64,000 nt of DNA from Escherichia phage p000y. This document shows, one piece after another, positions 2,269 to 41,342 of the stretch. The first letter of the stretch is position 1; each line of letters begins with the position of its first letter. The notes beneath the pieces are model-generated. The model was not told where the DNA came from. It searched no databases and saw nothing but the letters and a program-made list of their open reading frames with translations. The stretch is taken from the sequence record MK047718.1; one strand, given 5' to 3'. Made by a program: the position numbers and the translations under genes.

Positions 2269-2300
2269 GTTTACACGTGCTTCAAACATGATATTATAAA
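2269..2300 (+). promoter_or_regulatory. T4-type early promoter (GTTTAC ... TATTATAA) for motA
   Basis: GTTTACA -35-like box and AT-rich -10 about 35 nt upstream of motA start. Confidence 0.55.
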
Positions 2301-2336
2301 CCTATCAAAACAAAACAACCGAATTGGAGAAATAAA

Positions 2337-2969
2337 ATGTCTAAAGTTACTTACATCATCAAAGCTTCTGAAAACGCTCTGAATGAAAAAACTGCTGCAA
2401 TAATGGTTTATATCATTAAGAACAACTTCACCACTGCTGCCAATGTCCGTGAAGCTCTGGAAGCAGAATACAATGCATCGGTTGTTAACTCTAACATTGG
2501 TGTATTGATTAAGAAAGGTTTGGTCGAAAAATCCGGTGATGGACTTGTAGCAACAGGCGAAGCAATGGATATTATCCAAAAAGCTGCAGACCTATTTGCT
2601 CAAGAAAATGCTCCAGAACTTCTTCAGAAACGTAACACCAGAAAAGCACGTGGAGTTACTCCTGAAATGCATGAATTAGCAAACTTTGTTTTTGAAAATA
2701 TTAAAGATAAAGTTGAAGTTAAAGAAATTGGTGAAAACCGTAGTAACTTAGAAGTTCGATTTGCAAAACGAGTTCTAGGTATTCGTCAGATCGAAATTCG
2801 TCGAGATGGCGCTCTTAGAATCTTTGCATACAACATGTCAGAAACTGAATCAAAGCTGTTTACTTCTCTTGAAAATGATGTTAAGATTAAGATCGGTGGT
2901 AAATATACTTACATTGACTTCCCTAATGTGTCCAAAGAAATCATTACCCTTGTAACTAACGTACTGTGA
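2337..2969 (+). CDS. motA: MotA, middle-transcription activator
   Basis: 210 aa; N-terminus MSKVTYIIKAS and internal NSNIGVLIKKGLVEKSGDGL match remembered T4 MotA. Confidence 0.85.
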   Translation: MSKVTYIIKASENALNEKTAAIMVYIIKNNFTTAANVREALEAEYNASVVNSNIGVLIKKGLVEKSGDGLVATGEAMDIIQKAADLFAQENAPELLQKRNTRKARGVTPEMHELANFVFENIKDKVEVKEIGENRSNLEVRFAKRVLGIRQIEIRRDGALRIFAYNMSETESKLFTSLENDVKIKIGGKYTYIDFPNVSKEIITLVTNVL

Positions 2970-2979
2970 GGAATACATA

Positions 2980-3309
2980 ATGAATAAGCTGAATATTATT
3001 AACGAACTTCGTAAATGTGCAGAACCTACTCAGGAAGGATGGGATATTTGGTACCACGGGGCTTATTTAGGGACAATTGTAAAGATTAAAGCAGGCCAAT
3101 ATACGGTTATTCGTGAAAATAATGACGCGCCATTTGGCCTTCGTAAAAACTACATGGCAGCGATCAGTTCATTTGTTGATGCAGCTTACGAAATCTATAA
3201 AGAAGATTATAAAGAATATCAGCAGTCACAACCGGTTATTCGTTCAATTGGTGTTAACAAAGCTCAGCAGAAAACTTTGTGGCAACGTATTAAAGGATGG
3301 TTTAAATGA
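2980..3309 (+). CDS. Hypothetical protein (109 aa)
   Basis: ORF with RBS GAGGAA; lies in the motA-asiA hyperplastic region. Confidence 0.55.
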
Positions 3310-3767
3310 AAACTTTTAAAGAACGTTTAGCTCTGTTAGATAAAGCTTTGACGCGTGAGACTCCGGAAAGTCTGGCTGCTAAATTAGCTTCTTACGGTGG
3401 TGAATATACAGAACAAAATGTTTTAGATGAAGTTCCTGAAATCTGTTGGCAGACTCTGTATTGGGATGAAAACCAAAAGTATCAACGACGAATTGTCTGC
3501 GCAGCCAACCGTTTTAAATTAAAAGATGGACGAACTCTTATTATTCCAGGTGCTCGTCATTATTCTAAAGATATGGCAGAAGTTTTAGATGTAGTTAAAC
3601 CTCAATTAGTTACTCAACAAGTTTGTGATGATGACCAAGGGTTTATTGACCAGTATAGTAATTATTGGACACGTGAAGAAGCAATGATTATTGCAACTTA
3701 CGCTGGACAAGTACGTATTGAACGTGGTGGTAATGAAAAAGAACTTTACTCTGAGGACCTTTACTAA
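3306..3767 (+). CDS. Hypothetical protein (153 aa)
   Basis: ORF overlapping previous stop (ATGA); tight operon packing. Confidence 0.55.
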
Positions 3768-4633: not shown

Positions 4634-4784
4634 TCTTCAGAACGTAGTAGAGGCCGAACGTGAGCGCGAGGCTTTAGTCTATAATGAACTATTAGTTCAA
4701 TTCTTGGTCTTACACTCGTATGAACAGGAAGACTATACCAATTACGTTAAAAGCGTAGAAAAAGCCGTTTACAATCAACACTGA
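4623..4784 (+). CDS. Hypothetical small protein (53 aa)
   Basis: ATG overlaps upstream stop; ORF-track N-terminal extension trimmed. Confidence 0.35.
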   Translation: MSHNLQNVVEAEREREALVYNELLVQFLVLHSYEQEDYTNYVKSVEKAVYNQH

Positions 4785-4830
4785 TAATGGTACTATATCC
4801 ATATCAACTAAGTGGAATGAATAAAACGTT

Positions 4831-5103
4831 ATGAATAAAGACATTGAAATCGTACGTGAAATTATTACTATTGCTTCTATTTTGATTAAATTCTCTAGGG
4901 AAGATATTGTTGAAGACCGAGCAAGTTTCATCGGATTCTTGAATGAGATTGGAATTAAAAAAGATGGTCGGCAGCTAAATCAGAATTCTTTTAGAAAACT
5001 AATTACAAATTTAACTGCCGAAGAAAAGAAAACACTGATTAGTGAATTCAATGAAGGTTTTGAAAATATTTATCGTCATTTAGCGATGTATTCTAACAAC
5101 TAA
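4831..5103 (+). CDS. asiA: AsiA anti-sigma-70 factor
   Basis: 90 aa; MNKDIEIVREIITIASILIKFSREDIVE... closely matches remembered T4 AsiA. Confidence 0.9.
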   Translation: MNKDIEIVREIITIASILIKFSREDIVEDRASFIGFLNEIGIKKDGRQLNQNSFRKLITNLTAEEKKTLISEFNEGFENIYRHLAMYSNN

Positions 5104-15419: not shown

Positions 15420-15450
15420 GTTTACGCTTTCAAATGAGTGTGTTACTATA
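15420..15450 (+). promoter_or_regulatory. Early promoter (GTTTACG ... TGTGTTACTAT) for rnh
   Basis: GTTTAC box, extended -10 TGTG, TACTAT. Confidence 0.55.
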
Positions 15451-15481
15451 GACAAGTTGACTAACTGAACAAGAGGTTCAT

Positions 15482-16399
15482 ATGGATTTAGAAATGATGT
15501 TGGATGAAGATTACAAAGAAGGTATTGCGCTTGCCGACTTTAGTAACATTGCACTGGCAGCCGCATTAAACAACTTTGAAGACGGCGATAAAATTACAGT
15601 TCCAATGGTTCGCCATGTAATCTTGAATTCAATTCGTAAAAACGTAGTGATGTTCCGTAAGCAAGGCTATACAAAATTTGTATTGTGTATGGATAATGCT
15701 ACTTCGGGTTATTGGCGTCGAGACTTTGCTTACTATTACAAGAAAAATCGTAAAACCGATCGTGAAGCTTCAAAGTGGGATTGGGAAGGATATTTTACTG
15801 CACTCCATCAAGTTGTTGATGAGATTAAGAAATACATGCCATACGTTGTAATGGATATTGACAAGTATGAAGCGGATGACCATATCGGTGTATTAACTAA
15901 ATATTTGTCATTAGCTGGACATAAAGTATGTATTGTTGCATCAGATGGTGACTTTACACAATTACACAAATATCCTAACGTTAAACAGTGGTCGCCACCA
16001 CAGAAAAAATGGGTTAAAATTAAGAATGGTTCTGCTGAAATTGATTGCATGACTAAAATTCTTAAAGGTGACCGTAAGGATGGTGTTGCATCTGTTCGAG
16101 TTCGTGGCGACTTCTGGTTTACCAGAGTTGATGGTGAACGAACTCCGAGTATGAAAACATCGATTATTGAAGCAATTGCCAATGACCGTTCTCAAGCTGA
16201 AGTATTATTAAGTGCAGAAGAATATAAACGGTATCAAGAAAATTTGGTTCTCATTGATTTTGATTATATCCCTGATAATATTGCTTCAACCATTATAGAG
16301 TATTATAACTCGTATAAACAACAACCTAAAGGCAAGATTTATTCATACTTTGTAAAATCTGGTCTTTCTAAATTAACAAGTGTAATTAATGAATTCTGA
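15482..16399 (+). CDS. rnh: RNase H (5'-3' exonuclease / flap endonuclease)
   Basis: 305 aa; matches remembered T4 RNase H N-terminus and size. Confidence 0.9.
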   Translation: MDLEMMLDEDYKEGIALADFSNIALAAALNNFEDGDKITVPMVRHVILNSIRKNVVMFRKQGYTKFVLCMDNATSGYWRRDFAYYYKKNRKTDREASKWDWEGYFTALHQVVDEIKKYMPYVVMDIDKYEADDHIGVLTKYLSLAGHKVCIVASDGDFTQLHKYPNVKQWSPPQKKWVKIKNGSAEIDCMTKILKGDRKDGVASVRVRGDFWFTRVDGERTPSMKTSIIEAIANDRSQAEVLLSAEEYKRYQENLVLIDFDYIPDNIASTIIEYYNSYKQQPKGKIYSYFVKSGLSKLTSVINEF

Positions 16400-18676: not shown

Positions 18677-18698
18677 GGGAGACTTCGGTCTCCCTTTT
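18677..18698 (+). terminator. Terminator GGGAGACTTCGGTCTCCC + TTTT after gene 32
   Basis: Perfect hairpin plus T-run. Confidence 0.65.
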
Positions 18699-18725
18699 GA
18701 GTATCTGTAAATTGCCGAAAAAGTT

Positions 18726-18760
18726 GTTTACTTCTTCCCTGGATGTATTAGTATAGACAT
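18726..18760 (+). promoter_or_regulatory. Early promoter (GTTTAC ... TATTAGTATAG)
   Basis: GTTTAC box and AT-rich -10 upstream of ORF 18784. Confidence 0.45.
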
Positions 18761-18783
18761 ATCAACAACATGAGGAAATCAAA

Positions 18784-19188
18784 ATGGAAATCGGAAAATC
18801 TTATATCATTAACCCTTTATTTAAAGACGACTTTGTTCAAGAAGCACCACATAATAACGCTAAGATGTTAAAACTGATTGAACTCCATGGGCCTAGTTTT
18901 GTTGTAAACGGAATGGAACCTGATTACGATAGCGATACGCCAAACGTAGTAAGTGTAACTATGGAAGATGGTACTGTATGTTCTGCCGGTGGTGAAATTG
19001 AAACTTATTTTGAGATTTATCCTGATGAGTTCAAATACTTTATTGAGTACTTTACTGAGGTAGATTTAGTAAAGCCTCAACCTACTAACGAAGGTATAAC
19101 TTTAGGTGTAACAAAAATCCATTGTATCGTAGATGAAACCAACGTCGACGAAATCATCGAACTTTTGCAAAAAACTTTTAAAAAGTAG
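18784..19188 (+). CDS. Hypothetical protein (134 aa)
   Basis: ORF with RBS GAGGAAA following early promoter. Confidence 0.6.
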   Translation: MEIGKSYIINPLFKDDFVQEAPHNNAKMLKLIELHGPSFVVNGMEPDYDSDTPNVVSVTMEDGTVCSAGGEIETYFEIYPDEFKYFIEYFTEVDLVKPQPTNEGITLGVTKIHCIVDETNVDEIIELLQKTFKK

Positions 19189-19220
19189 TTTACAATCAGA
19201 TAGGGTTATGTTATAGTAGC
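19188..19220 (+). promoter_or_regulatory. Early promoter with stem-loop (GATAGGG ... CCCTATC flanking the -10)
   Basis: GTTTACA then inverted repeat enclosing TATAGT. Confidence 0.5.
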
Positions 19221-19251
19221 CCTATCAAATAAAAGTGAAGAGGAGAATAAA

Positions 19252-19494
19252 ATGAGATTGCAACGCCAGAGCATCAAAGATTCAGAAGTTAGAGGTAAAT
19301 GGTACTTCAACATCGTTGGTAAAGATGCTGAACTCCTTGAACAAGCTGAAGAAGCTTTACGTGAAATGGGTTGGAACGAAGAATGTGATGGATGTCCACT
19401 CTACGAAGATGGTATATCATCCGGATTCTGGATTTATCACTCGGATGTCGACCAATTTAAAGCTGATTGGAAAATTGTGAAAAAGTCTGTTTGA
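19252..19494 (+). CDS. Hypothetical protein (80 aa)
   Basis: ORF with RBS GAGGAGAA. Confidence 0.6.
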   Translation: MRLQRQSIKDSEVRGKWYFNIVGKDAELLEQAEEALREMGWNEECDGCPLYEDGISSGFWIYHSDVDQFKADWKIVKKSV

Positions 19495-25252: not shown

Positions 25253-25253
25253 T

Positions 25254-25664
25254 ATGAAAGATATCGCCGCCGAATATTCCTTTATTAAATATACAGAATT
25301 GGAGCTATTAGAAGATGCAACAATTAAAACAGTTGATGTCCCTAATAAGAAAAATGTCATATATGCTATTGCTATAGATGACGAACTTGTGTATATTGGT
25401 AAAACCAAGAATTTAAAGAAACGCATTAACTATTATCGAACAGCCATAAATCGAAAAGACCAGACTTCAGATTCAAGAAAATCACTTATGATTTTGGATG
25501 CCTTAATGCAAGGCAAAAAGGTTGAATTCTGGGCCCGCCAATGTTTTGACCTTTCAGTCACCAACGAACTTGGTTCAATGACCATCGCAACAATGGACCT
25601 TGAAGAACCACTTTTTATCAAAAAGTTCAACCCGCCTTGGAATATCCAACATAAGAAAAAGTAG
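25254..25664 (+). CDS. denA: Endonuclease II (GIY-YIG family)
   Basis: 136 aa (T4 DenA is 136 aa); GIY-YIG-like motif IYAIAIDDELVYIGKT...R...YY; position next to nrdB. Confidence 0.65.
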   Translation: MKDIAAEYSFIKYTELELLEDATIKTVDVPNKKNVIYAIAIDDELVYIGKTKNLKKRINYYRTAINRKDQTSDSRKSLMILDALMQGKKVEFWARQCFDLSVTNELGSMTIATMDLEEPLFIKKFNPPWNIQHKKK

Positions 25665-25695
25665 TTTACATACCACAAGGATTGTGGTACAATTT
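25664..25695 (+). promoter_or_regulatory. Early promoter (GTTTAC ... TACAAT) with stem CCACA/TGTGG
   Basis: Upstream of rnlA. Confidence 0.5.
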
Positions 25696-25710
25696 AAAAA
25701 AACTAACTGA

Positions 25711-26844
<1,134 letters not shown>

Positions 26845-26846
26845 CG

Positions 26847-26878
26847 GTTTACAAACACCAAGGATGGTGATACTATGG
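26847..26878 (+). promoter_or_regulatory. Early promoter (GTTTAC ... TACTAT)
   Basis: Upstream of alc; conserved leader TATCAACAACA(T/C)GAGGA shared with other early units in the window. Confidence 0.5.
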
Positions 26879-26905
26879 GTTTATCAACAACACGAGGAGA
26901 AAATT

Positions 26906-27406
26906 ATGAATATGCAATTGATTACTAACGATATGGTCGTAAACGCTTTTGGAGACACAACTGACGGAATCCGGGTCTTTAAGAAAGGACGTCCAGTTGG
27001 TTATCTTACTGACCTACGGGTTACACTGGCCAAAAATCTTAAAAAGAAAGTAAAACAAAAAGAGTATTCAACCCGATACGCTGAAGAGAAACGCGAAGCG
27101 ATGCCAGAAGCAGTTAATGCTATGGTAGAATTTCTTCAAAACAATTTGACTAAATATGACGCTAATGTGTTCATTAATATTAGTCAACCAAACGTACATA
27201 TCGCAGGTATAAAATTCTACATTATTTGCGACCCTCTTACCGACAAATTCAACCGTCTCGGAATTTCAAGTCCATATCATACAGCAGAAGAGTTGTGTGT
27301 ATTGTTTGAATCGTACAAAATCCAGTGTGATGGTTTGAAAACCGTTCTTATCAATGGATTATCCCGAGATGAAATCATTGAGATTATTAAAACATGCTTA
27401 AAGTAA
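26906..27406 (+). CDS. alc: Alc-like protein (166 aa)
   Basis: Start trimmed to ATG with RBS GAGGAGA; size (T4 Alc about 167 aa) and position between rnlA and pseT. Confidence 0.55.
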   Translation: MNMQLITNDMVVNAFGDTTDGIRVFKKGRPVGYLTDLRVTLAKNLKKKVKQKEYSTRYAEEKREAMPEAVNAMVEFLQNNLTKYDANVFINISQPNVHIAGIKFYIICDPLTDKFNRLGISSPYHTAEELCVLFESYKIQCDGLKTVLINGLSRDEIIEIIKTCLK

Positions 27407-28037: not shown

Positions 28038-28252
28038 CTAAAGAACAGCATGAATACATTAAAGGGCTTATCTATGAATCTGAAATGGCGGCTATGATTT
28101 ATGGACGCCAGATTCAACGATTAGAATCTTTGCCTCCGACTAATGACCGCTTGTTAGTTCAGTCTCGTGCTAATCTGAAAAATGAATATCAGAATAAGTG
28201 GGCAGTAGCGACTAAAGCTCTTCATGAGTATATTGAATCTTTAGTAAAATAG
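28028..28252 (+). CDS. Hypothetical protein (74 aa)
   Basis: ORF in pseT-proximal cluster. Confidence 0.45.
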   Translation: MPMTKEQHEYIKGLIYESEMAAMIYGRQIQRLESLPPTNDRLLVQSRANLKNEYQNKWAVATKALHEYIESLVK

Positions 28253-28283
28253 TTTACAAACTCTCAGGAGCAGAGTATAATGC
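28252..28283 (+). promoter_or_regulatory. Early promoter (GTTTAC ... TATAAT) with stem AGGAGC/GCTCCT
   Basis: Consensus -10 TATAAT enclosed by inverted repeat. Confidence 0.55.
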
Positions 28284-28309
28284 TCCTATGGATAATTGAG
28301 GAAATCTAA

Positions 28310-28608
28310 ATGAAAACATTACTAGAGAATTACATCAAACGGTCTGATGAGTATATTGATATCTGTCGTGGAATGTCACTTGGCAATTATGACAAAGATG
28401 CAGCAAAGGCACTAGATGAAGCAGGTAAAGCTCTTCGTAAAGCTGCTAAAGAAAAAGGGTTGGATTTGCAACAACTCAAAAGTCATATGATTAAATTTAT
28501 TTCTTCAAACGTTAGAAGTACGTCAATTAATAAAAACGTTGCTGAAATTAATAAAGACCGGCGCGAGCATAACATTCGTATTCTTGAAATTTTCTTAGGA
28601 ATAAAATA

Positions 28609-28609
<1 letters not shown>
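28310..28609 (+). CDS. Hypothetical protein (99 aa)
   Basis: ORF with RBS GAGGAAA. Confidence 0.55.
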
Positions 28610-29696
<1,087 letters not shown>

Positions 29697-30093: not shown

Positions 30094-30100
30094 GGTAATT

Positions 30101-30376: not shown

Positions 30377-30378
30377 TG

Positions 30379-30410
30379 GTTTACAACATGGTGGAGTTGT
30401 GATACTATAA
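30379..30410 (+). promoter_or_regulatory. Early promoter (GTTTAC ... TACTAT) with stem GGTGGAGTT/AACTCTACC
   Basis: Likely drives ORF 30437 and the DAHP synthase gene. Confidence 0.5.
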
Positions 30411-30436
30411 CTCTACCAACAAATGAGGAAATAGAA

Positions 30437-30673
30437 ATGCTAAGTGAAAACCCAATTACAGTACACGAATTTCAGATTAAAGTAAAAGAATTTGCTCAAG
30501 CACTCATCAATAAAGTGTCTGAACGTTTCCAAGATGCAACATTACGAGTTATTCAAGAATCTCCACGTTCTTTTCTCATAATCGTTAATCCTAAAGATGG
30601 TGACCAAATTACTAATCTTAAATTAGGCAGTGATGGTCTTGTTGAAGCAACTCGAGTATATGGAACACTATAA
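30437..30673 (+). CDS. Hypothetical protein (78 aa)
   Basis: ORF with RBS GAGGAAA. Confidence 0.55.
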   Translation: MLSENPITVHEFQIKVKEFAQALINKVSERFQDATLRVIQESPRSFLIIVNPKDGDQITNLKLGSDGLVEATRVYGTL

Positions 30674-30793
30674 TGAGAGCTATCTCATTACTATCGAGAA
30701 TGGTCATAAATCTGAGCACTACCAACTTAGCCTGTCTAATCCGGTTAAAGGTATTGTTGAATCAGAATCTGTTTATATCTCCTAAGGATTGTT

Positions 30794-32367: not shown

Positions 32368-32368
32368 T

Positions 32369-32665
32369 ATGATTTTAACTGAACAAGAGACTATGGTTCT
32401 TCGTGAACGTATTAAAACTATTCTGTCTGTAGGCGTTCATTGTGTTGTATTTGAAAAGGCTAACGGTGAGGTACGCACTATGTTTGCTTCGCGCGATGAA
32501 CTTGAAGTCAAATATGAAAATAACAATCCGGCAACAGAAGTTCGTTCTGAACCTCGTGAATCAGTTCGAGCATTCGATACCAAGTTAGGTCAGTGGCGTT
32601 CTTTCCGCCTTGATAAAGTAATTTCGGTTGATGGTACTCCGGTAGAACGTTTGCTTCTTATGTAA
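32369..32665 (+). CDS. Hypothetical protein (98 aa)
   Basis: Trimmed to ATG (ORF track begins at an upstream GTG). Confidence 0.5.
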   Translation: MILTEQETMVLRERIKTILSVGVHCVVFEKANGEVRTMFASRDELEVKYENNNPATEVRSEPRESVRAFDTKLGQWRSFRLDKVISVDGTPVERLLLM

Positions 32666-32722
32666 TATGCTTTACGAATAGTATGGTATTATTAATCTAT
32701 CGTCAAACAACAAGGAAATAAG

Positions 32723-33055
32723 ATGTCTGAAGTACAACTCCCAATTCGTGCTGTTGGTGAATATGTCATTCTGGTTTCTGAACCCGCTCAAGCAGGTGAT
32801 GAAGAAGTTACCGAATCAGGACTTGTGATTGGTAAACGTGTTCAAGGTGAAGTTCCTGAACTATGTATAGTTCATTCTGTAGGTCCTGATGTTCCTGAAG
32901 GTTTTGTTGAAGTCGGTGATTTGACTCCACTACCAGTTGGACAAATTCGAAATGTTCCACATCCATTTGTGGCTTTAGGACTTAAACAACCTAAAGAAAT
33001 TAAACAGAAATTCGTAACATGCCACTATAAAGCTATTCCGTGTCTTTATAAGTGA
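32723..33055 (+). CDS. 31: gp31 co-chaperonin (GroES analogue)
   Basis: 110 aa; near-identical to remembered T4 gp31 ([29 protein letters not shown]...). Confidence 0.9.
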
Positions 33056-33179
33056 TATAAATAACTATATGAAGAGAACACTCTTCTAAGCGGTAGCCTA
33101 CAACTGAGAGACTTGTCGAAAGAAGGTGAAATTCAGACGAACGTGGCTACTAAATATTATCTCGAATTGAGAATTTAAA

Positions 33180-33428
33180 ATGATTAAACAATTACAACAC
33201 GCTCTTGAACTGCAACGAAACGCATGGAATAACGGTCACGAAAACTACGGCGCGTCAATTGATGTTGAAGCCGAAGCACTGGAAATCCTGCATTATTTCA
33301 AACATCTGAACCCGGTACAGGCAGCTTTGGCCTCTGAACTGGAAGCAAAAGATGAACTGAAATATGCTAAGCCTTTGGCTTCTGCAGCTCGTAAAGCAGT
33401 ACGTCATTTTGTTATTACCCTTAAATAA
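33180..33428 (+). CDS. rIII: rIII lysis inhibition accessory protein
   Basis: 82 aa; closely matches remembered T4 rIII. Confidence 0.8.
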   Translation: MIKQLQHALELQRNAWNNGHENYGASIDVEAEALEILHYFKHLNPVQAALASELEAKDELKYAKPLASAARKAVRHFVITLK

Positions 33429-33723
33429 GTTTTAGGTGATTCGCTACCTTAAGTGCGGCTAGAAAATCGAGGAGCCGTCGAACTGTCTGATTAATGATTT
33501 GCGAATCATTATAGTTTTAAGGCCCCGGCAGTTTTACGGTGTACCTCTTGAATGTATTTTGTACTATCACGCGTCAGAAAAAGGTTATCTGTCTAAGTCG
33601 TGGTTGGTATGATGACGGGTTTATGGTTATCCTGTCGTTAAATATCCAAAACCTATGTTCCCCTTGAGGGCTTGCGCAGGCAATGTCAATAAGTCCTGCA
33701 TTTTCATTTAAAGAGAATTTATA

Positions 33724-33903
33724 ATGGCAAAACAAGCTAAAGCAAAGAAAGCAGTTGAAAAGAAAGTTGATGGTACCTCTAAACGCGCTGGATACAAGCG
33801 TGGGTCGAACTCTCGTATTAATCAAACAGTTGAGAAGATCATGCGCAGAGCACGTGCAGTTCTTCGAGATGATGCTTCTCGTTTTGGAAAGGTTGTTGCA
33901 TAA
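33724..33903 (+). CDS. Small lysine/arginine-rich protein (59 aa)
   Basis: Hand-translated MAKQAKAKKAVEKKVDGTSKRAGYKRG...; immediately followed by a strong terminator; weak RBS; below ORF-track cutoff. Confidence 0.35.
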   Translation: MAKQAKAKKAVEKKVDGTSKRAGYKRGSNSRINQTVEKIMRRARAVLRDDASRFGKVVA

Positions 33904-33908
33904 TTTTA

Positions 33909-33930
33909 GGGAGACTTCGGTCTCCCTTTT
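33909..33930 (+). terminator. Terminator GGGAGACTTCGGTCTCCC + TTTT
   Basis: Perfect hairpin and T-run. Confidence 0.65.
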
Positions 33931-33963
33931 GTGCGTTTAGGGCAGAAAAAGTTTAAAAAAGAT

Positions 33964-33994
33964 GTTTACTCTCCTGTAGGATGTGTTACTATAG
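33964..33994 (+). promoter_or_regulatory. Early promoter (GTTTAC ... TGTGTTACTAT)
   Basis: Upstream of ORF 34035. Confidence 0.5.
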
Positions 33995-34034
33995 ACTTGT
34001 ACCACCTAATCAATAAAACAAACCGGAGAACAAA

Positions 34035-34403
34035 ATGAAAATCAATCTGAACTCATACATCAAATGTAAAGACCACGATGGTTATAAAGCTATCGAAATT
34101 AAAGAATTCCAGTGGATGTTATACAAAGAGCAATTTGAGTTCGTAGGTTGTATGACCCCTGAAGGTCCTTCAGATGATTTCTCTTGGAAAATTGTGTTAG
34201 CAAACTTTTTCACAGGTGACACATACGAATTAAAAACTATTATTACCGGTAAAATTCGTTCAGAAACATATGTTGACGAAGAAACTGGTTACTCTGAAGT
34301 TGTTACATGGTATCAAAATGGACGCATTACAGCAGATAACCTGATCGAAAAAATGAAAGCCAAAGGTGTTTTAAATTTAGACAATTGGATTAAAGTTGCA
34401 TAA
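34035..34403 (+). CDS. Hypothetical protein (122 aa)
   Basis: ORF with own early promoter. Confidence 0.6.
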   Translation: MKINLNSYIKCKDHDGYKAIEIKEFQWMLYKEQFEFVGCMTPEGPSDDFSWKIVLANFFTGDTYELKTIITGKIRSETYVDEETGYSEVVTWYQNGRITADNLIEKMKAKGVLNLDNWIKVA

Positions 34404-34407
34404 AACA

Positions 34408-34438
34408 GTTTACTTTGGTACAGGTTATGTTATTATAG
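34408..34438 (+). promoter_or_regulatory. Early promoter with stem-loop (GGTACAGGT ... ACCTGTACC around TATTAT)
   Basis: 9-bp inverted repeat enclosing the -10. Confidence 0.55.
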
Positions 34439-34477
34439 ACCTGTACCAACAAACAACTTAAACATCTGGAGAATAAA

Positions 34478-34843
34478 ATGAACTACATCAACTTCGAACG
34501 TAAATATGTTTCTAACGGTATCGCTGGTTCTTCTGAAGTTATTTGCCTGTGGAAACACGAAAACGGTTCAGTATGTGAAATTGAGCAGTATATGACTCCT
34601 AATTACGTTTATATGCGATTTGAAAATGGCATCACGGTTTCAATCACGATGGAAGGTTCAAATTTTAAAATTGCATTAGATGATGATTTCCGTCAGCGTG
34701 ATTTAGGTACTCATCCTTGCTGGAATGGTGTTAATCGTAAACTTCTGGTTAAAACTTGGATTCGTCATATCCTGAGTAACCGAGCTAAACCTGAACATCT
34801 CGAAGCAATCTTTGATGTAGTTCTTAACGAATTTGATATCTAA
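34478..34843 (+). CDS. Hypothetical protein (121 aa)
   Basis: ORF with own early promoter and downstream hairpin GGGAGCCGAAGCTCCC. Confidence 0.6.
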   Translation: MNYINFERKYVSNGIAGSSEVICLWKHENGSVCEIEQYMTPNYVYMRFENGITVSITMEGSNFKIALDDDFRQRDLGTHPCWNGVNRKLLVKTWIRHILSNRAKPEHLEAIFDVVLNEFDI

Positions 34844-34879
34844 ATTAATTGGGAGCCGAAGCTCCCTATTGAGGAAATT

Positions 34880-35494
34880 ATGTTTAAAGTTAATACTTTT
34901 TATAAAATGAATTTTAAAAACGGGGATATTACTCCACGCCTTAAAAACATGTTCTCATATGACCTTATCGAGCCTTTTGAAGTTTTAGAAGTTACTGATG
35001 CTGGCTCGGTTTGTGAAATTAGAACTTCTGAAGGTAAAATTTATCAGGCAGGTGTTGGTAAATTCAGTAATTGTTTTACTTTAATATTCTCGACTGATTT
35101 AGATGAGCATTTTATTGAATGTCCTAACCATAAGGTCTACGAAGTTCCATGGAAAGAAACTAAGAAAAATGGACCGCATGAATACACGAAGGTTGAAACT
35201 CCTCACGGCGATATGTGGCGGCATAACTCTCCTTTCGGAAGTAAAGGAACATTTGCTCAACTGCCTAAACCTTATGACGATGAAAAATACATCGTCGCCT
35301 TTTTATCTGAACAGGGTACTCAAGACCGTGGATGTCAACGAAGTGGTTTACTAAGTGAACTTGAAGCTCATAACCAAGCACGTGAATTCGTTGAGAAAAA
35401 TCCTGGCTCTGAAGCTCTAGTCATGAAAGCAATTACTCAATATATCACTGCTCAACCTGTTGTTCATCCGGTAGAAATTAATTTCATTAAGTAG
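34880..35494 (+). CDS. Hypothetical protein (204 aa)
   Basis: ORF with RBS GAGGAAA. Confidence 0.6.
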   Translation: MFKVNTFYKMNFKNGDITPRLKNMFSYDLIEPFEVLEVTDAGSVCEIRTSEGKIYQAGVGKFSNCFTLIFSTDLDEHFIECPNHKVYEVPWKETKKNGPHEYTKVETPHGDMWRHNSPFGSKGTFAQLPKPYDDEKYIVAFLSEQGTQDRGCQRSGLLSELEAHNQAREFVEKNPGSEALVMKAITQYITAQPVVHPVEINFIK

Positions 35495-35526
35495 TTTACA
35501 TCCAAGGACGGATTAGAGTATAATGA
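35494..35526 (+). promoter_or_regulatory. Early promoter (GTTTACA ... TATAAT)
   Basis: Upstream of the 35549-38980 operon. Confidence 0.5.
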
Positions 35527-35548
35527 TTTCTTTAGTAAGTGGAAAAAT

Positions 35549-35746
35549 ATGAAATTTTTAATAGCACAAACAGTCCAATTAAAAGGTGTTGGAATTCCTG
35601 GGGTGATTTTTAAAGTTCTCCCTGAATTTAAAACCGGCGCTGGAATTATCAATGAAGCGTATGCTGTTCAATGGGTTGATTGGACTTCTGACATACGTAT
35701 GGGTAAAGAGTTATCTCCTATTAAAGGGTTGAAACATGTTGAATAA
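35549..35746 (+). CDS. Hypothetical protein (65 aa)
   Basis: ORF. Confidence 0.45.
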   Translation: MKFLIAQTVQLKGVGIPGVIFKVLPEFKTGAGIINEAYAVQWVDWTSDIRMGKELSPIKGLKHVE

Positions 35747-35948
35747 ATTAATCCAGAAATTGTTAGGTACAGAAATGGTTGAAGTTACGTATCGTGTGAC
35801 TGATGTAAGCCCATGGACCCGAAAAGTTGAACCATATACTAAAACAATTAAAATGCTGAAATATGACAGTGGATTATCTATCAAAGACCGTCTACCGGCT
35901 TATGGTCATTGGGCTGATGTTGAAATTATAAGTGTTAAAGATGTCTGA
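35736..35948 (+). CDS. Hypothetical protein (70 aa)
   Basis: ORF. Confidence 0.45.
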   Translation: MLNKLIQKLLGTEMVEVTYRVTDVSPWTRKVEPYTKTIKMLKYDSGLSIKDRLPAYGHWADVEIISVKDV

Positions 35949-36399
35949 GTTAGAGATAAGAAGTAATTTCAAGTGGCCGTCATGTGCATTAAGTAATTTT
36001 GCTCAATGGCCTTTTGTTATGGATGGTATTCAATTCGGAGGTCTTGAAGGATTTCTCCAAGGATGTAAGGTGAAAAATGTTGAACAACAAAGACGTATAT
36101 TTGGGTTGTCTGGATTGGCTGCACAGCAAGCTGGAAGGTCTTATGCAAGAGCTCAGGACCGTGGGACTCTCTTCTGGTTAGGAGTTCCGTTTTCAAGATA
36201 CTCCGAAGCGTGGAAAGAATTATACACAAATGCATATTTTGAAGCCGCGATCCAAAATAAGGGGTTTCGTGATGCCTTACAAGCCTCTAAAGGAAAAATT
36301 TTGAAGCACAGCATGGCTAGCCACCTAACAAAAGATGATACAATACTAACCGAAGCTGAATTTATTGATGTGTTAAACCTATTAAGAGACTCTTTATGA
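35932..36399 (+). CDS. NADAR / YbiA (DUF1768)-like protein, putative ADP-ribose-processing N-glycosidase
   Basis: 155 aa; LSNFAQWPFVMDG resembles the E. coli YbiA FSNFAAWPIKVDG signature, followed by E...FLQGCK region; the true start may be the ATG at 35941. Confidence 0.5.
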   Translation: MLKMSELEIRSNFKWPSCALSNFAQWPFVMDGIQFGGLEGFLQGCKVKNVEQQRRIFGLSGLAAQQAGRSYARAQDRGTLFWLGVPFSRYSEAWKELYTNAYFEAAIQNKGFRDALQASKGKILKHSMASHLTKDDTILTEAEFIDVLNLLRDSL

Positions 36400-37211
36400 A
36401 GCCTACTATTTTGACTGATATTGATGGTGTATGTTTAAGCTGGCAATCTGGACTTCCTTATTTTGCCCAAAAATATAACCTTCCATTAGAACATATTTTA
36501 AAAATGATTCAGGACGAAAAATTTATTTCTCCTGGTAAACTGTTCAATACCGACGATAACCTTGGTAAACAATTAATAGAAAAATATAATAGCTCTGATT
36601 TTATTCGTTACTTAGCGCCTTATTCTGATGCTCTTCGAGTTATCAATAAACTAAAAGAAGACTATAATTTTGTAGCCGTGACGGCGCTAGGTGATTCAAT
36701 TGATGCTCGATTGAATAGACAATTTAATTTGAATGCTTTGTTCCCAGGCGCTTTCTCTGAAGTAATGATGTGTGGTCATGATTCTTCAAAGGAACAATTA
36801 TTCGAACTAGCTAAAACAAAATATAACGTAATTTGTTACGTTGACGATTTAGCTCATCATTGCGACCATGCGGCAGAAATTCTTAATGTACCGATTTATT
36901 GGTTGGCTCGTGGTGAACGTGATGATATTCCTCGCACTGCACAACGTGTACACACGTGGGATGATATTGAATCTCGTTTGGTTCCACCTGAGCATAATTC
37001 AGATTCAGATCGTGAAGACCTTTTAAAACGATTGGCGGATTTGCTTAAAGAATCAGGTGCAACAAGCCCAGGTGCATGGCCTAATCAAATTGGCGCTCCG
37101 TCGAATCCGTATACTTGGCGAACTCCAGGACCAACCGATATGCAGCCATGGTGGACGATTCAAAACTTTCCTTTAGATTCGTCCAAATGGACTTGGTCTA
37201 TAAATTGTTAA
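36396..37211 (+). CDS. HAD-superfamily hydrolase, putative (deoxy)nucleotidase
   Basis: 271 aa; HAD motif I ILTDIDGV near N-terminus, motif IV YVDD; Pro/Trp-rich C-terminal tail. Confidence 0.55.
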   Translation: MKPTILTDIDGVCLSWQSGLPYFAQKYNLPLEHILKMIQDEKFISPGKLFNTDDNLGKQLIEKYNSSDFIRYLAPYSDALRVINKLKEDYNFVAVTALGDSIDARLNRQFNLNALFPGAFSEVMMCGHDSSKEQLFELAKTKYNVICYVDDLAHHCDHAAEILNVPIYWLARGERDDIPRTAQRVHTWDDIESRLVPPEHNSDSDREDLLKRLADLLKESGATSPGAWPNQIGAPSNPYTWRTPGPTDMQPWWTIQNFPLDSSKWTWSINC

Positions 37212-37220
37212 GGGCTAATT

Positions 37221-37490
37221 ATGTTTGTAGTTCATGATATTACAGATGGCAAAAACACCACACGTGACTACGGTCATGTTAACATGTTCTTTCGAGACTG
37301 GCCGGTGTTTCGTTCAGTAAAAGACGCAGAAATATTTAAAGAGTGTGTTGAACAAGGGTTCATCTACATTTCAGAATATTATGTTGAAGGACTCGGTAAA
37401 TGGATTACCACTTATCAGAAAACGCTGAAATCGCTTCTAGATGAAGTGGCTTATAATAGAACCGTAACCAAAATCGAGGACATCAAATGA
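37221..37490 (+). CDS. Hypothetical protein (89 aa)
   Basis: ORF. Confidence 0.5.
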   Translation: MFVVHDITDGKNTTRDYGHVNMFFRDWPVFRSVKDAEIFKECVEQGFIYISEYYVEGLGKWITTYQKTLKSLLDEVAYNRTVTKIEDIK

Positions 37491-38980
37491 TTTTAGATAT
37501 TTTAAACCAAATAGCTGCGATCGGTTCTACTAAAACAAAACAAGAAATCCTTAAGAAAAATAAGGACAACAAATTACTTGAACGTGTGTATCGTTTAACA
37601 TATGCACGTGGTATCCAGTATTATATTAAGAAATGGCCAGGACCAGGTGAAAGGTCTCAAGCGTATGGTCTTCTTGAATTAGATGACATGTTGGATTTTA
37701 TTGAGTTCACATTAGCCACTCGTAAACTCACTGGTAATGCTGCAATTAAAGAGCTCATGGGTTATATCGCTGACGGTAAACCTGATGATGTAGAAGTCCT
37801 TCGTCGTGTAATGATGCGAGACCTTGAAGTAGGTGCTTCAGTGTCTATCGCGAATAAGGTGTGGCCTGGACTTATTCAATTGCAGCCACAGATGTTAGCA
37901 TCTGCATATGATGAGAAATTGATTACTAAAAATATTAAATGGCCTGCATTTGCCCAATTAAAGGCAGATGGTGCTCGTTGTTTCGCTGAAGTTCGCGATG
38001 ATGGCGTTCAATTCTTTTCTCGTGCCGGTAACGAATACCATGGTCTTACTCTATTAGCAGATGAACTAATGGAAATGACTAAAGAAGCTCGTGAAAGACA
38101 CCCTAATGGGGTTTTAATCGACGGTGAATTAGTTTATCATTCATTTGATATTAAAAAGGCTGTGAGCTCAGGAAATGACCTGTCGTTCTTATTTGGCGAT
38201 AATGAAGAATCCGAAGAAGTACAAGTTGCAGACCGTAGCACTTCAAATGGTTTAGCAAATAAATCTCTTCAAGGGACTATTTCTCCTAAAGAAGCTGAAG
38301 GTATGGTTCTTCAAGCCTGGGACTATGTTCCTTTAGATGAAGTCTATTCTGACGGCAAAATTAAAGGTCAGAAATACGATGTTCGTTTTGCTGCTCTTGA
38401 AAATATGGCTGAAGGCTTTAAACGAATTGAGCCAATTGAAAATCAGTTAGTTCATAATCTTGATGAAGCTAAAGTGGTTTATAAAAAATATGTTGACCAA
38501 GGTCTTGAAGGTATTATCCTTAAAAATCGTGATTCATATTGGGAAAACAAACGCTCTAAGAACCTAATTAAATTTAAAGAAGTTATTGATATCGCTTTAG
38601 AAGTTGTAGGATACTATGAACACTCTAAAGACCCTAACAAATTAGGTGGTGTCGAACTCGTATCACGTTGTCGTCGTATTACAACCGATTGTGGTTCGGG
38701 TTTTAAAGATACAACTCATAAAACAGTTGATGATGTAAAGGTTCTTATTCCTTTAGATGAGCGTCATGATTTAGACCGTGAACGATTAATGGCTGAAGCT
38801 CGTGAAGGTAAATTAATTGGACGTATCGCTGATTGTGAATGTAATGGTTGGGTTCATTCTAAAGGCCGTGAAGGTACTGTAGGTATTTTCCTTCCAATTA
38901 TTAAAGGGTTCCGTTTTGATAAAACAGAAGCGGATTCATTTGAAGACGTATTTGGACCGTGGTCCCAGACAGGTTTATAA
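37487..38980 (+). CDS. 30: ATP-dependent DNA ligase
   Basis: 497 aa; adenylation motif KADGAR present; matches remembered T4 ligase. Confidence 0.9.
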   Translation: MILDILNQIAAIGSTKTKQEILKKNKDNKLLERVYRLTYARGIQYYIKKWPGPGERSQAYGLLELDDMLDFIEFTLATRKLTGNAAIKELMGYIADGKPDDVEVLRRVMMRDLEVGASVSIANKVWPGLIQLQPQMLASAYDEKLITKNIKWPAFAQLKADGARCFAEVRDDGVQFFSRAGNEYHGLTLLADELMEMTKEARERHPNGVLIDGELVYHSFDIKKAVSSGNDLSFLFGDNEESEEVQVADRSTSNGLANKSLQGTISPKEAEGMVLQAWDYVPLDEVYSDGKIKGQKYDVRFAALENMAEGFKRIEPIENQLVHNLDEAKVVYKKYVDQGLEGIILKNRDSYWENKRSKNLIKFKEVIDIALEVVGYYEHSKDPNKLGGVELVSRCRRITTDCGSGFKDTTHKTVDDVKVLIPLDERHDLDRERLMAEAREGKLIGRIADCECNGWVHSKGREGTVGIFLPIIKGFRFDKTEADSFEDVFGPWSQTGL

Positions 38981-39168
38981 TGAAAGCTTATTTAGAAACA
39001 GTTATTGTAGCTAAGAAGGATGGTGGAGATGTTTCCACCTCTTGCTCTCAGATTATATTAGATTTTCCTAATAACGATTCCTATCATATTTTTATGGACA
39101 ATTTTGATAAGTACGAAAAAGGCCCTAATTTTGAAGTTTATCGTACTTTGCTCCCGATTGTGGATTAA
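38980..39168 (+). CDS. Hypothetical protein (62 aa)
   Basis: Trimmed to ATG overlapping ligase stop (TAATG). Confidence 0.4.
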   Translation: MKAYLETVIVAKKDGGDVSTSCSQIILDFPNNDSYHIFMDNFDKYEKGPNFEVYRTLLPIVD

Positions 39169-39187
39169 GAGCCTTCGGGCTCTTTTT
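39168..39187 (+). terminator. Terminator AGAGCCTTCGGGCTCT + TTTTT
   Basis: Hairpin and T-run. Confidence 0.6.
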
Positions 39188-39223
39188 GGCATAAATATAA
39201 ATTATTACTAAAAGGAAAACACT

Positions 39224-41311
39224 ATGTCTGAACAATTAAATGAAGTGTTTGAATCTGAAGGCAGTCTTCCTGTCGTCAATTTGAACCCTAAAGCTAAAGT
39301 TCCACAAGTCTGGAAAATTGGTGATATCGATACAAATATTGTAGTTCGTTTATTCTCTTACCTTTCCGAAGGCGACGCTGTAAAACAAGTTAAACTTGGC
39401 GACAAATACGCTCATGTTGTTATTATGAGTCTGTCTGAAAAGGGTAATCTCGCTGAATTGAAAAATGGTCTTGGTCCTGCTCCTATTGATGCAATCAACA
39501 CCATTTTCAATACAGTGTATGAACAGGTTAAAGCTCTTCGTATGGATGCAGTTTTGTTCCGATTCCCTACTAAGAAATTGAAAGGACGTGGACAACAACT
39601 TCAAACTCTTCTTGCTCGTTTAGTTTCTACTAAAACTGGTGGTCGTTTTAAAGTATTGTCTGCAATGTATCAATTCACAGGTAAACACACATATGTGATG
39701 ATGGTTCGTAAAAATGCCAACATTGAAGATATTAAAGGCATCCCTAACATTAACACAGAGTTGTACACGAAAGTAGATTCTGATGTTGGTGAAGTTTATG
39801 TGAGTAAAAAGACTGGCGAAAAGGTCACCAAAGAAACGGCTATCGCTGGTTCTATTGCTGCTGTAGAAGAAAAACGTAAAGATAAGCCTGTTATTGCTCG
39901 TACTAAAATTTCTCGTCGCGCCATTGCAGCAAGTCAATCTTTAGAAGCTGACCGCCAAGAAGGTGAGCTATTCCAGAAATACGAAAATTCTGCTAAAGAA
40001 GTTAGTGGCCCAGCTACAGCTGAATTACTTCCTGAAGCATATGAAATCGTACTAGCCCAAGCATCGTCCACAGCAAAAGGCACTTTAGTTGCTGATATCG
40101 AAAATAAGATTTATAATCGTATTGATGAATCCTTTAGATTTGCTGATGAAGTTTCTTATGGCAGTGTTATTAAGCCAACTTTAGAAAAGTTTGCTAAGAA
40201 AATTAAAACTGAAAAAACAACATCTGTTAAAGCATTAGCTGCTTTTGTTGAAGCTGCAAATGAAATTGCAGACTCTATTAAAGACGAATGGTTTGAAGAT
40301 TTTAGACGAGATAATTTCCAACTGGCTGACGACGTTTTAGCTGAAGTATCTGAAAAAACTTGGAAACAACGTAAATCAGCGTTCTTGTCTAATGTGATGT
40401 ATACTTATGCACGAGAATCGGCTAGAGGCACCTTTAATATAACAATGAATCGGGACCCTAAACAATACTCTGTTGCTGAAAAACGAGCTATTCGTGAATA
40501 TGCCTCTTCTGCGTATACCGATATCAATAATATGTTGTTAGGCCGTTATAAACCGGATTTTTATGATGTTGCAGATGAAGATGAAGTTAAACGCGCTATT
40601 GATGGTCTTGATTCGGCGTTTTTAAATGGAGACCGTTTACCTGAAGGACTAACGTTGTATAGAGCCCAGTCTATCAGAATGCCTATTTATGAAGCAATGG
40701 TTAAAAATAAGGTATTCTACTTCAGAAACTATGTTTCCACTTCACTAGCTCCTATTATTTTCGGTGGGTTTAAAGAGAACGTTGCCCTTGGACTTGCTCC
40801 TGAAGAAGTTCGCAAAGAGCTTAACATTGACAATAATGACGAAGGTGTTACTATTTCTCCTAGTCAAGTAAGAACAGCTATGCATGCACCAGAACAAATC
40901 CGTGTTAACGTTGGATGGGCTATTGATGGCGCTCATAAAGTTAACGTGATTTATCCAGGACAGTTGAGTAATCACCCTAATGAGCAAGAAATTATTTTGC
41001 CTAGAGGCATTCTCTTGCAGATAAATAAAATTACAGATGCGTCATCTGACACTGGTGCAGGTTTAGAATCCAACCTTAAATTTATTCAAGCTGAAGTCAT
41101 GTCCTCAGACCAGTTGGACGAAGCTGTCATTTACGATGGTGATGTTCTCATGGAAACAGGCGAGGTGGTTGCTATGACGGGTGAAATCGAATCGGATGAG
41201 CCGGTATCGTTCTCCTCATTTGTAGAAAAAACTAGTGCTCCTAAAGGATTGAAACTGTTAGCATCTTTAATGGATTTGGAATCGGTTCCGTTTAAATTTG
41301 TTCAAGGATAG
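39224..41311 (+). CDS. alt: Alt-like ADP-ribosyltransferase
   Basis: 695 aa; C-terminal ART signature (R ... STS ... EQEIILP); size and position next to ligase as in T4. Confidence 0.8.
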   Translation: MSEQLNEVFESEGSLPVVNLNPKAKVPQVWKIGDIDTNIVVRLFSYLSEGDAVKQVKLGDKYAHVVIMSLSEKGNLAELKNGLGPAPIDAINTIFNTVYEQVKALRMDAVLFRFPTKKLKGRGQQLQTLLARLVSTKTGGRFKVLSAMYQFTGKHTYVMMVRKNANIEDIKGIPNINTELYTKVDSDVGEVYVSKKTGEKVTKETAIAGSIAAVEEKRKDKPVIARTKISRRAIAASQSLEADRQEGELFQKYENSAKEVSGPATAELLPEAYEIVLAQASSTAKGTLVADIENKIYNRIDESFRFADEVSYGSVIKPTLEKFAKKIKTEKTTSVKALAAFVEAANEIADSIKDEWFEDFRRDNFQLADDVLAEVSEKTWKQRKSAFLSNVMYTYARESARGTFNITMNRDPKQYSVAEKRAIREYASSAYTDINNMLLGRYKPDFYDVADEDEVKRAIDGLDSAFLNGDRLPEGLTLYRAQSIRMPIYEAMVKNKVFYFRNYVSTSLAPIIFGGFKENVALGLAPEEVRKELNIDNNDEGVTISPSQVRTAMHAPEQIRVNVGWAIDGAHKVNVIYPGQLSNHPNEQEIILPRGILLQINKITDASSDTGAGLESNLKFIQAEVMSSDQLDEAVIYDGDVLMETGEVVAMTGEIESDEPVSFSSFVEKTSAPKGLKLLASLMDLESVPFKFVQG

Positions 41312-41342
41312 TTTACAAGCACATGGATGTGTGATACTATCA
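41311..41342 (+). promoter_or_regulatory. Early promoter (GTTTACA ... TGTGATACTAT) with stem GGATG/CATCC
   Basis: Upstream of ORF 41370. Confidence 0.5.

Follow-up and report, generated by a model that had tools for sequence, protein, structure and literature searches.

The 64,000-nucleotide (nt) stretch of Escherichia phage p000y analysed here (MK047718.1; hereafter the window) is DNA of an RB69-like (Mosigvirus) T4-type coliphage: between positions 26000 and 42000 it matches Mosigvirus phages such as vB_EcoM_G53 and APCEc01 over its full length at 97-98% identity, and the annotated APCEc01 region supplied the gene map. Early genes occupy the + strand, and tail-fibre, baseplate and head genes the - strand. 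Our subject is the set of early promoters on the + strand, some of which enclose a stem-loop, and which the initial annotation of the window had likened to the promoter-early stem-loop (PeSL) elements of T4-type phages. Reading the 50 nt 3' of every GTTTAC gave 15 strong early promoters that fit GTTTAC-N17-19-TAnnnT. Without exception they lie on the + strand, with -35 hexamers that start at 2269, 4767, 15420, 18726, 19188, 25664, 26847, 28252, 30379, 33964, 34408, 35494, 41311, 54539 and 57387. A position-weight scan recovered all 15 and added a single weak + strand site; on the - strand it detected nothing.

These promoters are closely alike. The spacer is 17-18 nt long in 14 of the 15 and the -10 hexamer is extended (TGn) in 11, which largely bears out the claim of a dozen or more early promoters that combine GTTTAC with an extended -10. 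The 20 nt 5' of the -35 are 77% A+T (62% window-wide), and in five units (19188, 25664, 28252, 35494 and 41311) the last base of the upstream TAG stop codon is also the first of GTTTAC, so that the whole regulatory unit is packed into a gap of about 60 nt. GAGGA or GGAG lies 6-9 nt 5' of the ATG. The 17-nt leader TATCAACAACAYGAGGA occurs in three exact copies in the window (0.03 expected by chance), and a conserved leader shared by several promoters, as first described, is therefore real; exact identity between different units reaches at most 19 nt, with a median of 8. GTTTACA by itself, which had been taken as part of the signal, is at chance level in the window (14 occurrences vs 14.2 expected), for which reason the composite promoter motif was used instead. 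A generic TTGACA/TATAAT scan of 18000-37900 gave no excess (69 sites vs 65 expected), and searches of the window with Rfam (gathering thresholds) and ARAGORN returned no match. To judge from their sequence, the flagged sites are ordinary T4-type early promoters that form the boundaries between early transcription units.

We computed the fold of every promoter core, defined as the stretch that begins where the -35 ends and stops 16 nt beyond the -10. Summed over the 15 promoters the folding energy is -112 kcal/mol, compared with -65 +/- 8 kcal/mol for dinucleotide shuffles (z = -5.8), and four of the 15 cores fold at -12 kcal/mol or below, as do 1.4% of all 40-nt windows (binomial p ~5e-5). The signal comes from the four units that enclose the -10 in a strong stem (19188, 28252, 30379 and 34408; -12 to -18 kcal/mol); two others fold moderately (4767, and 25664 with a hairpin in the spacer), and the remaining nine fold no better than their shuffles. 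The inverted repeats reported around the -10 of many promoters are therefore enriched over shuffled sequence, but a strong enclosing stem is found in only four, to which the spacer hairpin at 25664 and the weak stems at 4767 and 41311 may be added. Promoters 2269, 18726 and 33964 lack an embedded hairpin and have instead a separate canonical terminator about 30-45 nt upstream, of the form GGGAG(A)C-TTCG-G(T)CTCCC followed by a T-run. A stem-loop thus lies within or beside the promoter in eight of the 15 units (four embedded, one in the spacer, three as upstream terminators); the other seven would be plain T4-type early promoters.

The same elements were sought in 1.08 Mb of related sequence, comprising 42 loci around the dCMP deaminase gene of diverse T4-like phages and nine Mosigvirus regions. 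The scan yielded 289 early-strand promoters and 30 on the opposite strand, with 184 unique cores. Of the unique cores 24% fold at -12 kcal/mol or below, compared with 0.5% in a swapped-arm control, in which left and right halves were recombined between unrelated promoters, a step that keeps the consensus. The hairpins are selected; they are not a by-product of the promoter consensus. The stems of 46 such hairpins are unrelated in sequence between slots and between lineages (examples are CCGGAAGT, GCTGATTGAGTGT, GGTGAGGGTCT, GGTAGGACT, GTAGGAGAC, GGTACAGG, GATAGGG, GGGAGC and CAGGGTAAT), and what is constant is the geometry: the 5' arm falls at about -15 to -4 and the 3' arm at about +5 to +16 relative to the start of the -10. 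The spacer accordingly holds the 5' arm, the loop contains or adjoins the -10, and the 3' arm falls in the discriminator and around the start site. The gene 30.7 slot by itself shows at least seven different stems across lineages, distant T4-like phages carrying hairpins of unrelated sequence there. Stem registers differ by up to 11 nt between lineages, and the paired columns do not align for column-wise covariation.

The context in which the hairpins occur is strongly restricted. All but one of the 46 embedded hairpins belong to promoters no more than 30 nt from an upstream stop codon on the same strand, and the rate is 45/127 among promoters near a stop codon vs 1/61 elsewhere (p = 2e-8). 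A canonical terminator, searched for over all hairpin lengths from 14 to 36 nt, lies upstream of none of the 46 hairpin promoters vs 22 of the 143 without a hairpin (p = 0.0025). The two strands are also not equivalent: in hairpins chosen by Watson-Crick pairs only, ten internal mismatches are G·T and none is A·C, and the sense strand outfolds the antisense strand in 46 of 50 cases. The preference for G·T over A·C, the dependence on a stop codon and the exclusion by terminators together argue that the hairpin acts on sense-strand read-through RNA.

We infer that the embedded hairpins are RNA hairpins acting on read-through transcripts from the upstream gene, and hold this, as the whole explanation, with moderate confidence. 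The unit would extend over about 60 nt from a stop codon to the next ATG, and would consist of an A-rich tract, a promoter for the host sigma70 polymerase (GTTTAC, a 17-18 nt spacer, TGnTAnnAT), a G-poor, CA-rich leader, and a block made up of the Shine-Dalgarno sequence (SD) and the ATG, this last often GGAGAATAAAATG and matching the RegB cleavage consensus. Where the promoter abuts the stop codon there would be no space for a separate hairpin, and in such cases the free positions of the promoter (spacer and discriminator) may have evolved complementarity. Read-through RNA from the upstream gene would then fold with the -10 sequence in the hairpin loop; the promoter's own transcripts, if they begin at the usual distance of 7 nt from the -10, would start inside or after the 3' arm and could not form the hairpin. 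The structure would thereby insulate the upstream transcript – as an attenuator, as a protector of the 3' end after cleavage at the downstream GGAG, or as both – and would be interchangeable in function with the canonical GGGAGAC-UUCG-GUCUCCC-U-run terminators found 5' of other early promoters. Gain and loss of gene cassettes would be a by-product of recombination between short, near-identical SD-ATG/leader blocks. One RB49 PeSL stem-loop cut expression of a downstream lacZ about as much as rrnB T1 did (PMC2839356). The RegB cleavage consensus is GGAGRAYARAA (Uzan and Miller, PMC3014915); the leader end GGAGAATAAAATG fits it, which provides an independent reason both for the conservation of this sequence and for its use as microhomology.

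Several observations weigh against an RNA-level role. None of the 46 embedded hairpins has TTT in the 8 nt after the stem (the tails are 57% A and 15% T), and a generic terminator scan calls none of them: they are not canonical intrinsic terminators. Nor is the hairpin obligatory, being absent from 82 of the 127 stop-adjacent promoters. The excess of G·T could derive in part from strand-biased C->T mutation rather than from selection. Covariation within slots is thin, amounting to one full compensatory pair (A-T/G·T/G-C at 28252), several wobble steps and a few disruptive changes, and the 184 unique cores include orthologues, so that p-values overstate independence. We found no map of T4 or Mosigvirus transcript 3' ends in the literature against which termination at the hairpins could be tested. 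A more specific version, which we offer as tentative and rather doubtful, is that the hairpins constitute a distinct class of RNA insulator without a U-run, which replaces the terminator where a promoter abuts a stop codon and works with RegB-type cleavage at GGAG to define and protect the upstream 3' end, and that the true crossover point of cassettes is the SD-ATG/RegB block and not the promoter or stem-loop. If true, this crossover point would revise the published model of PeSL shuffling.

Among the individual units, the strongest stem is that of the unit 5' of 30.7 (34408..34480, + strand), an 11-base-pair (bp) perfect inverted repeat at 34415-34425 / 34439-34449 (TTGGTACAGGT/ACCTGTACCAA) around the -10 TATTAT (-17.9 kcal/mol), with a leader that ends in GGAGAATAAAATG. 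The unit 5' of the cd.2 homologue (30379..30439, +) has a hairpin at 30389-30418 worth -16.9 kcal/mol as RNA; it contains G·U pairs and escapes detection as an exact DNA inverted repeat. In the frd.1 unit (19188..19254, +) the arms 19199-19208 / 19217-19226 surround the -10 TATAGT (-16.3 kcal/mol); the leader again ends in GGAGAATAAAATG, and the stem is preserved in relatives through T·G->C-G and G-C->G·T changes. The unit 5' of open reading frame (ORF) 28310, which has no T4 counterpart (28252..28312, +), carries a hairpin at 28266-28287 around the -10 TATAAT (-12.2 kcal/mol), with the arms AGGAGCA/TGCTCCT at 28266-28272 / 28281-28287; one of its pairs varies as A-T, G·T or G-C among relatives. 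The repeats at 28252 and 34408 cited in the initial annotation exist, then, although the ends given for them fell short of the 3' arms. A different arrangement was seen about 70 nt 5' of the 30.7 homologue at the relatives' loci L026, L027 (near 13660-13730), L034-L038 and L042, where the spacer sequence CTCCGTTGTATGT is perfectly complementary to ACATACAACGGAG at the downstream SD; in such slots only read-through RNA would hide the ribosome-binding site, and the promoter's own transcript would leave it free.

The weaker stems lie in four further units, all on the + strand: 5' of rnlA (25664..25722; spacer hairpin TACCACAA/TTGTGGTA at 25671-25689, -8.3 kcal/mol, p = 0.008), 5' of a 90-amino-acid (aa) asiA-like ORF (4767..4833; an imperfect stem around the -10, -6.2 kcal/mol, p = 0.03), 5' of alc (26847..26908; leader TATCAACAACACGAGGA, with a 5-bp spacer stem at chance level) and 5' of the alt.-3 homologue (41311..41372; leader TATCAACAACATGAGGA, with a 5-bp stem GGATG/CATCC around the -10, also at chance level). 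For alc, automatic ORF calling, like some database annotations, chooses ATG 26864, which falls within the spacer of promoter 26847. The APCEc01 RefSeq record begins the gene at the ATG near 26906 instead, following GAGGAG, and this is the plausible start.

Three + strand units are preceded by terminators. The motA unit (2269..2339; -35 at 2269, -10 at 2292, a leader, ATG at 2337) has no embedded hairpin, and a canonical terminator hairpin at 2227-2244, followed by a T-run, lies 5' of it. The segments 18677..18786 and 33909..34037 each begin with the terminator GGGAGACTTCGGTCTCCC and TTTT (18677-18694 and 33909-33926); the former continues with promoter 18726 and the leader TATCAACAACATGAGGA 5' of the frd.2 homologue, the latter with promoter 33964 5' of the 30.8 homologue (Pfam Phage_30_8). 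A G+C-rich stem followed directly by a U-run, as in intrinsic terminators, is present at 2227, 18677, 33909 and 41673. The family GGGAG(A)C-tetraloop-G(T)CTCCC recurs in both orientations, at 10344, 18677, 33909, 34851, 41673 and 57727, and the p000v copy of the 34851 terminator has compensatory changes (GGAGGC/GCCTCC vs GGGAGC/GCTCCC). The other + strand units are those 5' of rnh at the divergent junction with gene 34 (15420..15484, no hairpin), 5' of the 30.5 homologue (35494..35551, no significant hairpin; in p000v and ECO111 5-P this unit and ORF 34880 are replaced by an ORF of 30.6 size), 5' of the 89-aa ORF 57447 (phrog_6003) between the - strand genes 24 and 23 (57387..57449, no significant hairpin), and 5' of ORF 54657 (54539..54659). 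The last promoter lies within a small annotated ORF and has a hairpin, CCGAG/CTCGG, in its own leader at about 54577-54592. The small ORF of this stretch (54460-54660) is annotated in relatives (61-66 aa); either it is spurious or it contains the promoter.

The stem-loop promoters had been described as bracketing ORFs foreign to T4. Comparison of the window ORFs with the syntenic T4 region by tblastn shows instead that the ORFs listed are T4 homologues: ORF 18784 corresponds to frd.2 (41% identity), 19252 to frd.1 (85%), 30437 to cd.2 (65%), 34035 to 30.8 (37%), 34478 to 30.7 (95%), and ORFs 35549-37490 to 30.5, 30.4, 30.3, 30.2 and 30.1 (46-96%). Only two of those listed, 18784 and 34035, lie between two promoters. 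The supposed DAHP synthase unit at 35549-37490 is in fact this run of genes 30.5-30.1; DAHP synthase is encoded at 30794-31786 (Pfam PF00793, E = 7e-75), and no promoter adjoins it, the nearest being about 400 nt 5' of its start. By tblastn the ORFs of the region without a T4 match are 19504, 28310, 28609, 29869, 30673, 30794 and 34880, a promoter touches only two of the five truly non-T4 blocks, and the ORFs that the promoters flank are mostly T4 homologues.

Of the four strong hairpin promoters, those at the frd.1, cd.2 and 30.7 slots have orthologues in T4, which also has a hairpin promoter at each of these slots. The T4 hairpin at the frd.1 slot differs in sequence from that of the window (19188), the stem at the 30.7 slot (34408) is the same in both, and promoter 30379 is orthologous to Pe133295, named in the T4 record between cd.3 and cd.2. 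Since T4 shares these three slots, the strong hairpin promoters are old and conserved, standing before conserved small genes, and are not marks of lineage-specific insertions; among them only 28252, 5' of the non-T4 ORF 28310, fits the earlier picture. Identity to T4 across 32723-36399 is itself strongly mosaic: gene 31 (95%), rIII (91%), 30.9 (97%), 30.7 (95%) and 30.3 (96%) have 30.8 (37%), 30.4 (46%) and alt (41%) as low-identity neighbours, a pattern that suggests that small segments were recently exchanged with Tequatrovirus phages.

Fourteen Mosigvirus relatives were aligned to the window and their junctions read individually. Seven indels are homing-endonuclease or intron events (between genes 33 and 59, in td, in nrdA, between nrdA and nrdB, in nrdB, beside ORF 57447, and at the 260-aa ORF 51775-52557), and nine are events that involve ORF cassettes. 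In three of the nine both junctions fall within promoter units: G53, AV117 and CCU7 have a 71-aa ORF between two repeats of about 86 nt of the unit 5' of motA, of which the window has a single copy; G2285 has lost gene 30.8; and LF82-2 has an additional frd.2 paralogue flanked by two promoter units. In two more, one junction or insertion site coincides with a promoter unit (the replacement of ORF 34880, and an extra paralogue in phage 55), and in four neither junction does (ORF 19504, nrdA.1 at 21443, the DAHP synthase block, and an intragenic 30.7/30.5 fusion); the DAHP synthase block was deleted in one relative via the microhomology TAATGA(R)AGCTA. Eight of the nine events have as their junction a microhomology of 9-22 nt over the SD-ATG block (for example TGAGGAAATAnAATG, AGAGGACAT, TAATGArAGCTA, CTGGAGAATAAAATG and TTGGAGAAATAAAATGTCTAAA), and among the resolved junctions no crossover lies in a hairpin or promoter hexamer. 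Gene starts at junctions are preceded by a promoter in 6 of 13 cases vs 13 of 57 in the universe of gene starts (odds ratio 4.5, p = 0.03), a modest enrichment for which p = 0.10 with the first nine relatives alone and which reaches p = 0.03 only once the motA region is added. That cassette boundaries coincide with the elements may hold in part: 6 of the 13 junction starts are preceded by a promoter, but the crossovers are in the SD-ATG part and four of the nine events have no promoter at either junction.

Further details of these sites may be noted. The ORF at 21443-21748 is 85% identical to T4 nrdA.1; eight of the nine Mosigvirus relatives examined have a spacer of 85-98 nt in its place, that of APCEc01 with a hairpin of its own (ACGGGATAAATACTATCCCGT), and ECO111 5-P has a segment of 746 nt. 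The junctions of this ORF share AGAGGACAT. In vB_EcoM_G2285 (locus L045, 21126-21350) a 75-aa ORF that carries the annotation 'Gp30.7' appears to join the N-terminus of 30.7 (window 34478-34595) in frame to the C-terminus of 30.5 (35623-35746), about 1 kb between them being deleted, including ORF 34880 and promoter 35494. The 260-aa ORF on the - strand (51775-52557), a homing endonuclease by the annotation of its closest full-length match (NBG1), is replaced by 6 nt in APCEc01, PNJ-9 and AV115. At 57439-57712, PNJ-9 and AV115 have a divergent allele of ORF 57447 together with a SegD homing endonuclease, and the divergence begins just 5' of the ATG, as expected for co-conversion beside a homing site. 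Finally, in the non-coding segment 3' of rIII (33428-33732), 135 nt (33429-33563) are replaced by 3 nt in p000v, LF82-2, phage 55 and TH12, and the boundary of this indel runs through GTGTAC-17-TACTAT at 33539, which weakly resembles a promoter. An unannotated gap in the tRNA cluster of the unrelated Justusliebigvirus phage muut matches about 256 nt of the segment at 92.6% identity; the segment has no Rfam or tRNA match and a fold z-score of -0.57.

Could the inverted repeats arise without any role in read-through RNA? Nine of the 15 window promoters fold no better than shuffles, and the inner two to four pairs of several stems derive from the TGTGA / TATA region of a consensus that is itself self-complementary (TGTGATACTATA); chance or consensus is the likely explanation of the weak stems at 4767, 26847 and 41311. 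As an account of the set as a whole it is highly improbable, given that the swapped-arm control keeps the consensus and yields 0.5% instead of 24% at or below -12 kcal/mol, that the outer stems are unrelated in sequence between slots, and that the window-level z is -5.8; for the strong hairpins the shuffle test and the swapped-arm control rule it out. Alternatively, the repeat could tune the promoter as DNA, a cruciform or hairpin at the -10 of supercoiled DNA altering open-complex formation and making a supercoiling-sensitive early promoter. Most of the repeats have the -10 hexamer at their centre. Cruciform extrusion represses synthetic promoters that carry a palindrome at this position, and the early promoters of phage N4 are DNA hairpins. 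A cruciform needs both strands to be paired, yet G·T outnumbers A·C by 10:0 among the mismatches, and in 46 of 50 cases it is the antisense strand that folds less well; moreover some hairpins are wholly in the spacer (25664), and a purely promoter-intrinsic role predicts neither the dependence on an upstream stop codon nor the exclusion by terminators. We regard tuning at the DNA level as improbable.

The original PeSL model deserves somewhat more weight, but we still think it unlikely here. It treats the units as recombination modules, in which promoter and stem-loop are kept as portable homology, and perhaps as a site for structure-specific cleavage, ORF cassettes being excised, circularised and inserted between related phages. 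The three cassette differences with both junctions in promoter units (the 71-aa ORF at motA, the loss of 30.8 and the frd.2 paralogue) and the enrichment of promoter-preceded starts at junctions (odds ratio 4.5) are what it would lead one to expect, and mini-circles have been reported for RB49 and phi1 (PMC2839356). Against this, every resolved crossover lies in the SD-ATG/leader block (e.g. TTGGAGAAATAAAATGTCTAAA, CTGGAGAATAAAATG) and never in hairpin or hexamers; of the four events with no promoter at either junction three (ORF 19504, nrdA.1 and DAHP synthase) used microhomology of the SD-ATG type and the fourth is the intragenic fusion; seven more indels belong to homing endonucleases or introns; and the units of this genome share no more than 19 nt of exact identity. 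The model also leaves unexplained the top-strand bias towards G·T, the stop-codon dependence and the terminator exclusion, the very features from which an action on read-through RNA was deduced.

The elements are of a known kind, not new, and the main yield of the analysis is the correction of the earlier gene assignments. It adds, as far as sequence comparison can indicate, that the hairpins depend on a neighbouring stop codon, that upstream terminators exclude them and that the crossovers map to the SD-ATG block. The elements set the starts of early transcription and, probably, the ends of upstream messages in a phage group that is widely used for therapy and engineering. That the hairpin would belong to the upstream transcript and that cassettes would be exchanged via the SD-ATG block both matter for gene deletion or insertion at these junctions, and both points refine the published model of accessory-gene swapping in T4-type phages.

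Compared with the early promoters of T4, which are served by unmodified host sigma70 polymerase, those of the window show no substantive difference: GTTTAC, the 17-18 nt spacer, the extended -10, the A-rich upstream tract and the location on the early-gene strand are shared, as are the genes served (motA, asiA, rnlA, alc, cd.2, 30.7 and alt.-3), and the window's promoters would be the Mosigvirus versions of this class. Intrinsic (Rho-independent) terminators resemble the embedded hairpins in placing a stable RNA hairpin just after a stop codon, and in these phages the two are mutually exclusive at the same junction; the embedded stems differ in lacking a U-run (0/46) and in having large loops unless G·U pairs of the -10 consensus close them. 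In T4 genes e, soc and 49, hairpins hide the ribosome-binding site in read-through transcripts only. The logic is alike, the 5' arm being 5' of the start site so that only RNA from an upstream promoter folds, but in the window some 20 nt separate the end of the 3' arm from the SD, which leaves the ribosome-binding site unsequestered.

The closest relatives of the hairpin-bearing units are the PeSLs themselves, which Arbiol et al. (2010) defined in coliphages RB49 and phi1 (PMC2839356) and Comeau et al. (2014) extended to T4/PST (TTTACW-N17-TAYWAT) and nt-1/KVP40 (PMC4122927). The anatomy described by Arbiol et al. recurs in the window – a stop codon in an AT-rich tract, a sigma70-type promoter, a stem-loop, then SD and ATG, with the stem mostly between the -35 and -10 or over the -10, G-T pairs in the stems, and perhaps an association with small variable ORFs – and by this definition the label PeSL, proposed in the initial annotation, is apt for the hairpin-bearing units. 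RB49 promoters are near-perfect TTGACA/TATAAT with stems that are often polyG/polyC, whereas the window has GTTTAC, stems of mixed sequence and A-rich 3' flanks, and, unlike in RB49 and phi1, only about a quarter of its promoters have an embedded stem. The T4/PST elements share the promoter consensus of the window (PMC4122927), but their stem-loops are described as lying just upstream of the promoter, whereas in the window, and in T4 at the frd.1, cd.2 and 30.7 slots, the stem encloses the -10; the upstream type is also present in the window (2269, 18726 and 33964), as a canonical terminator.

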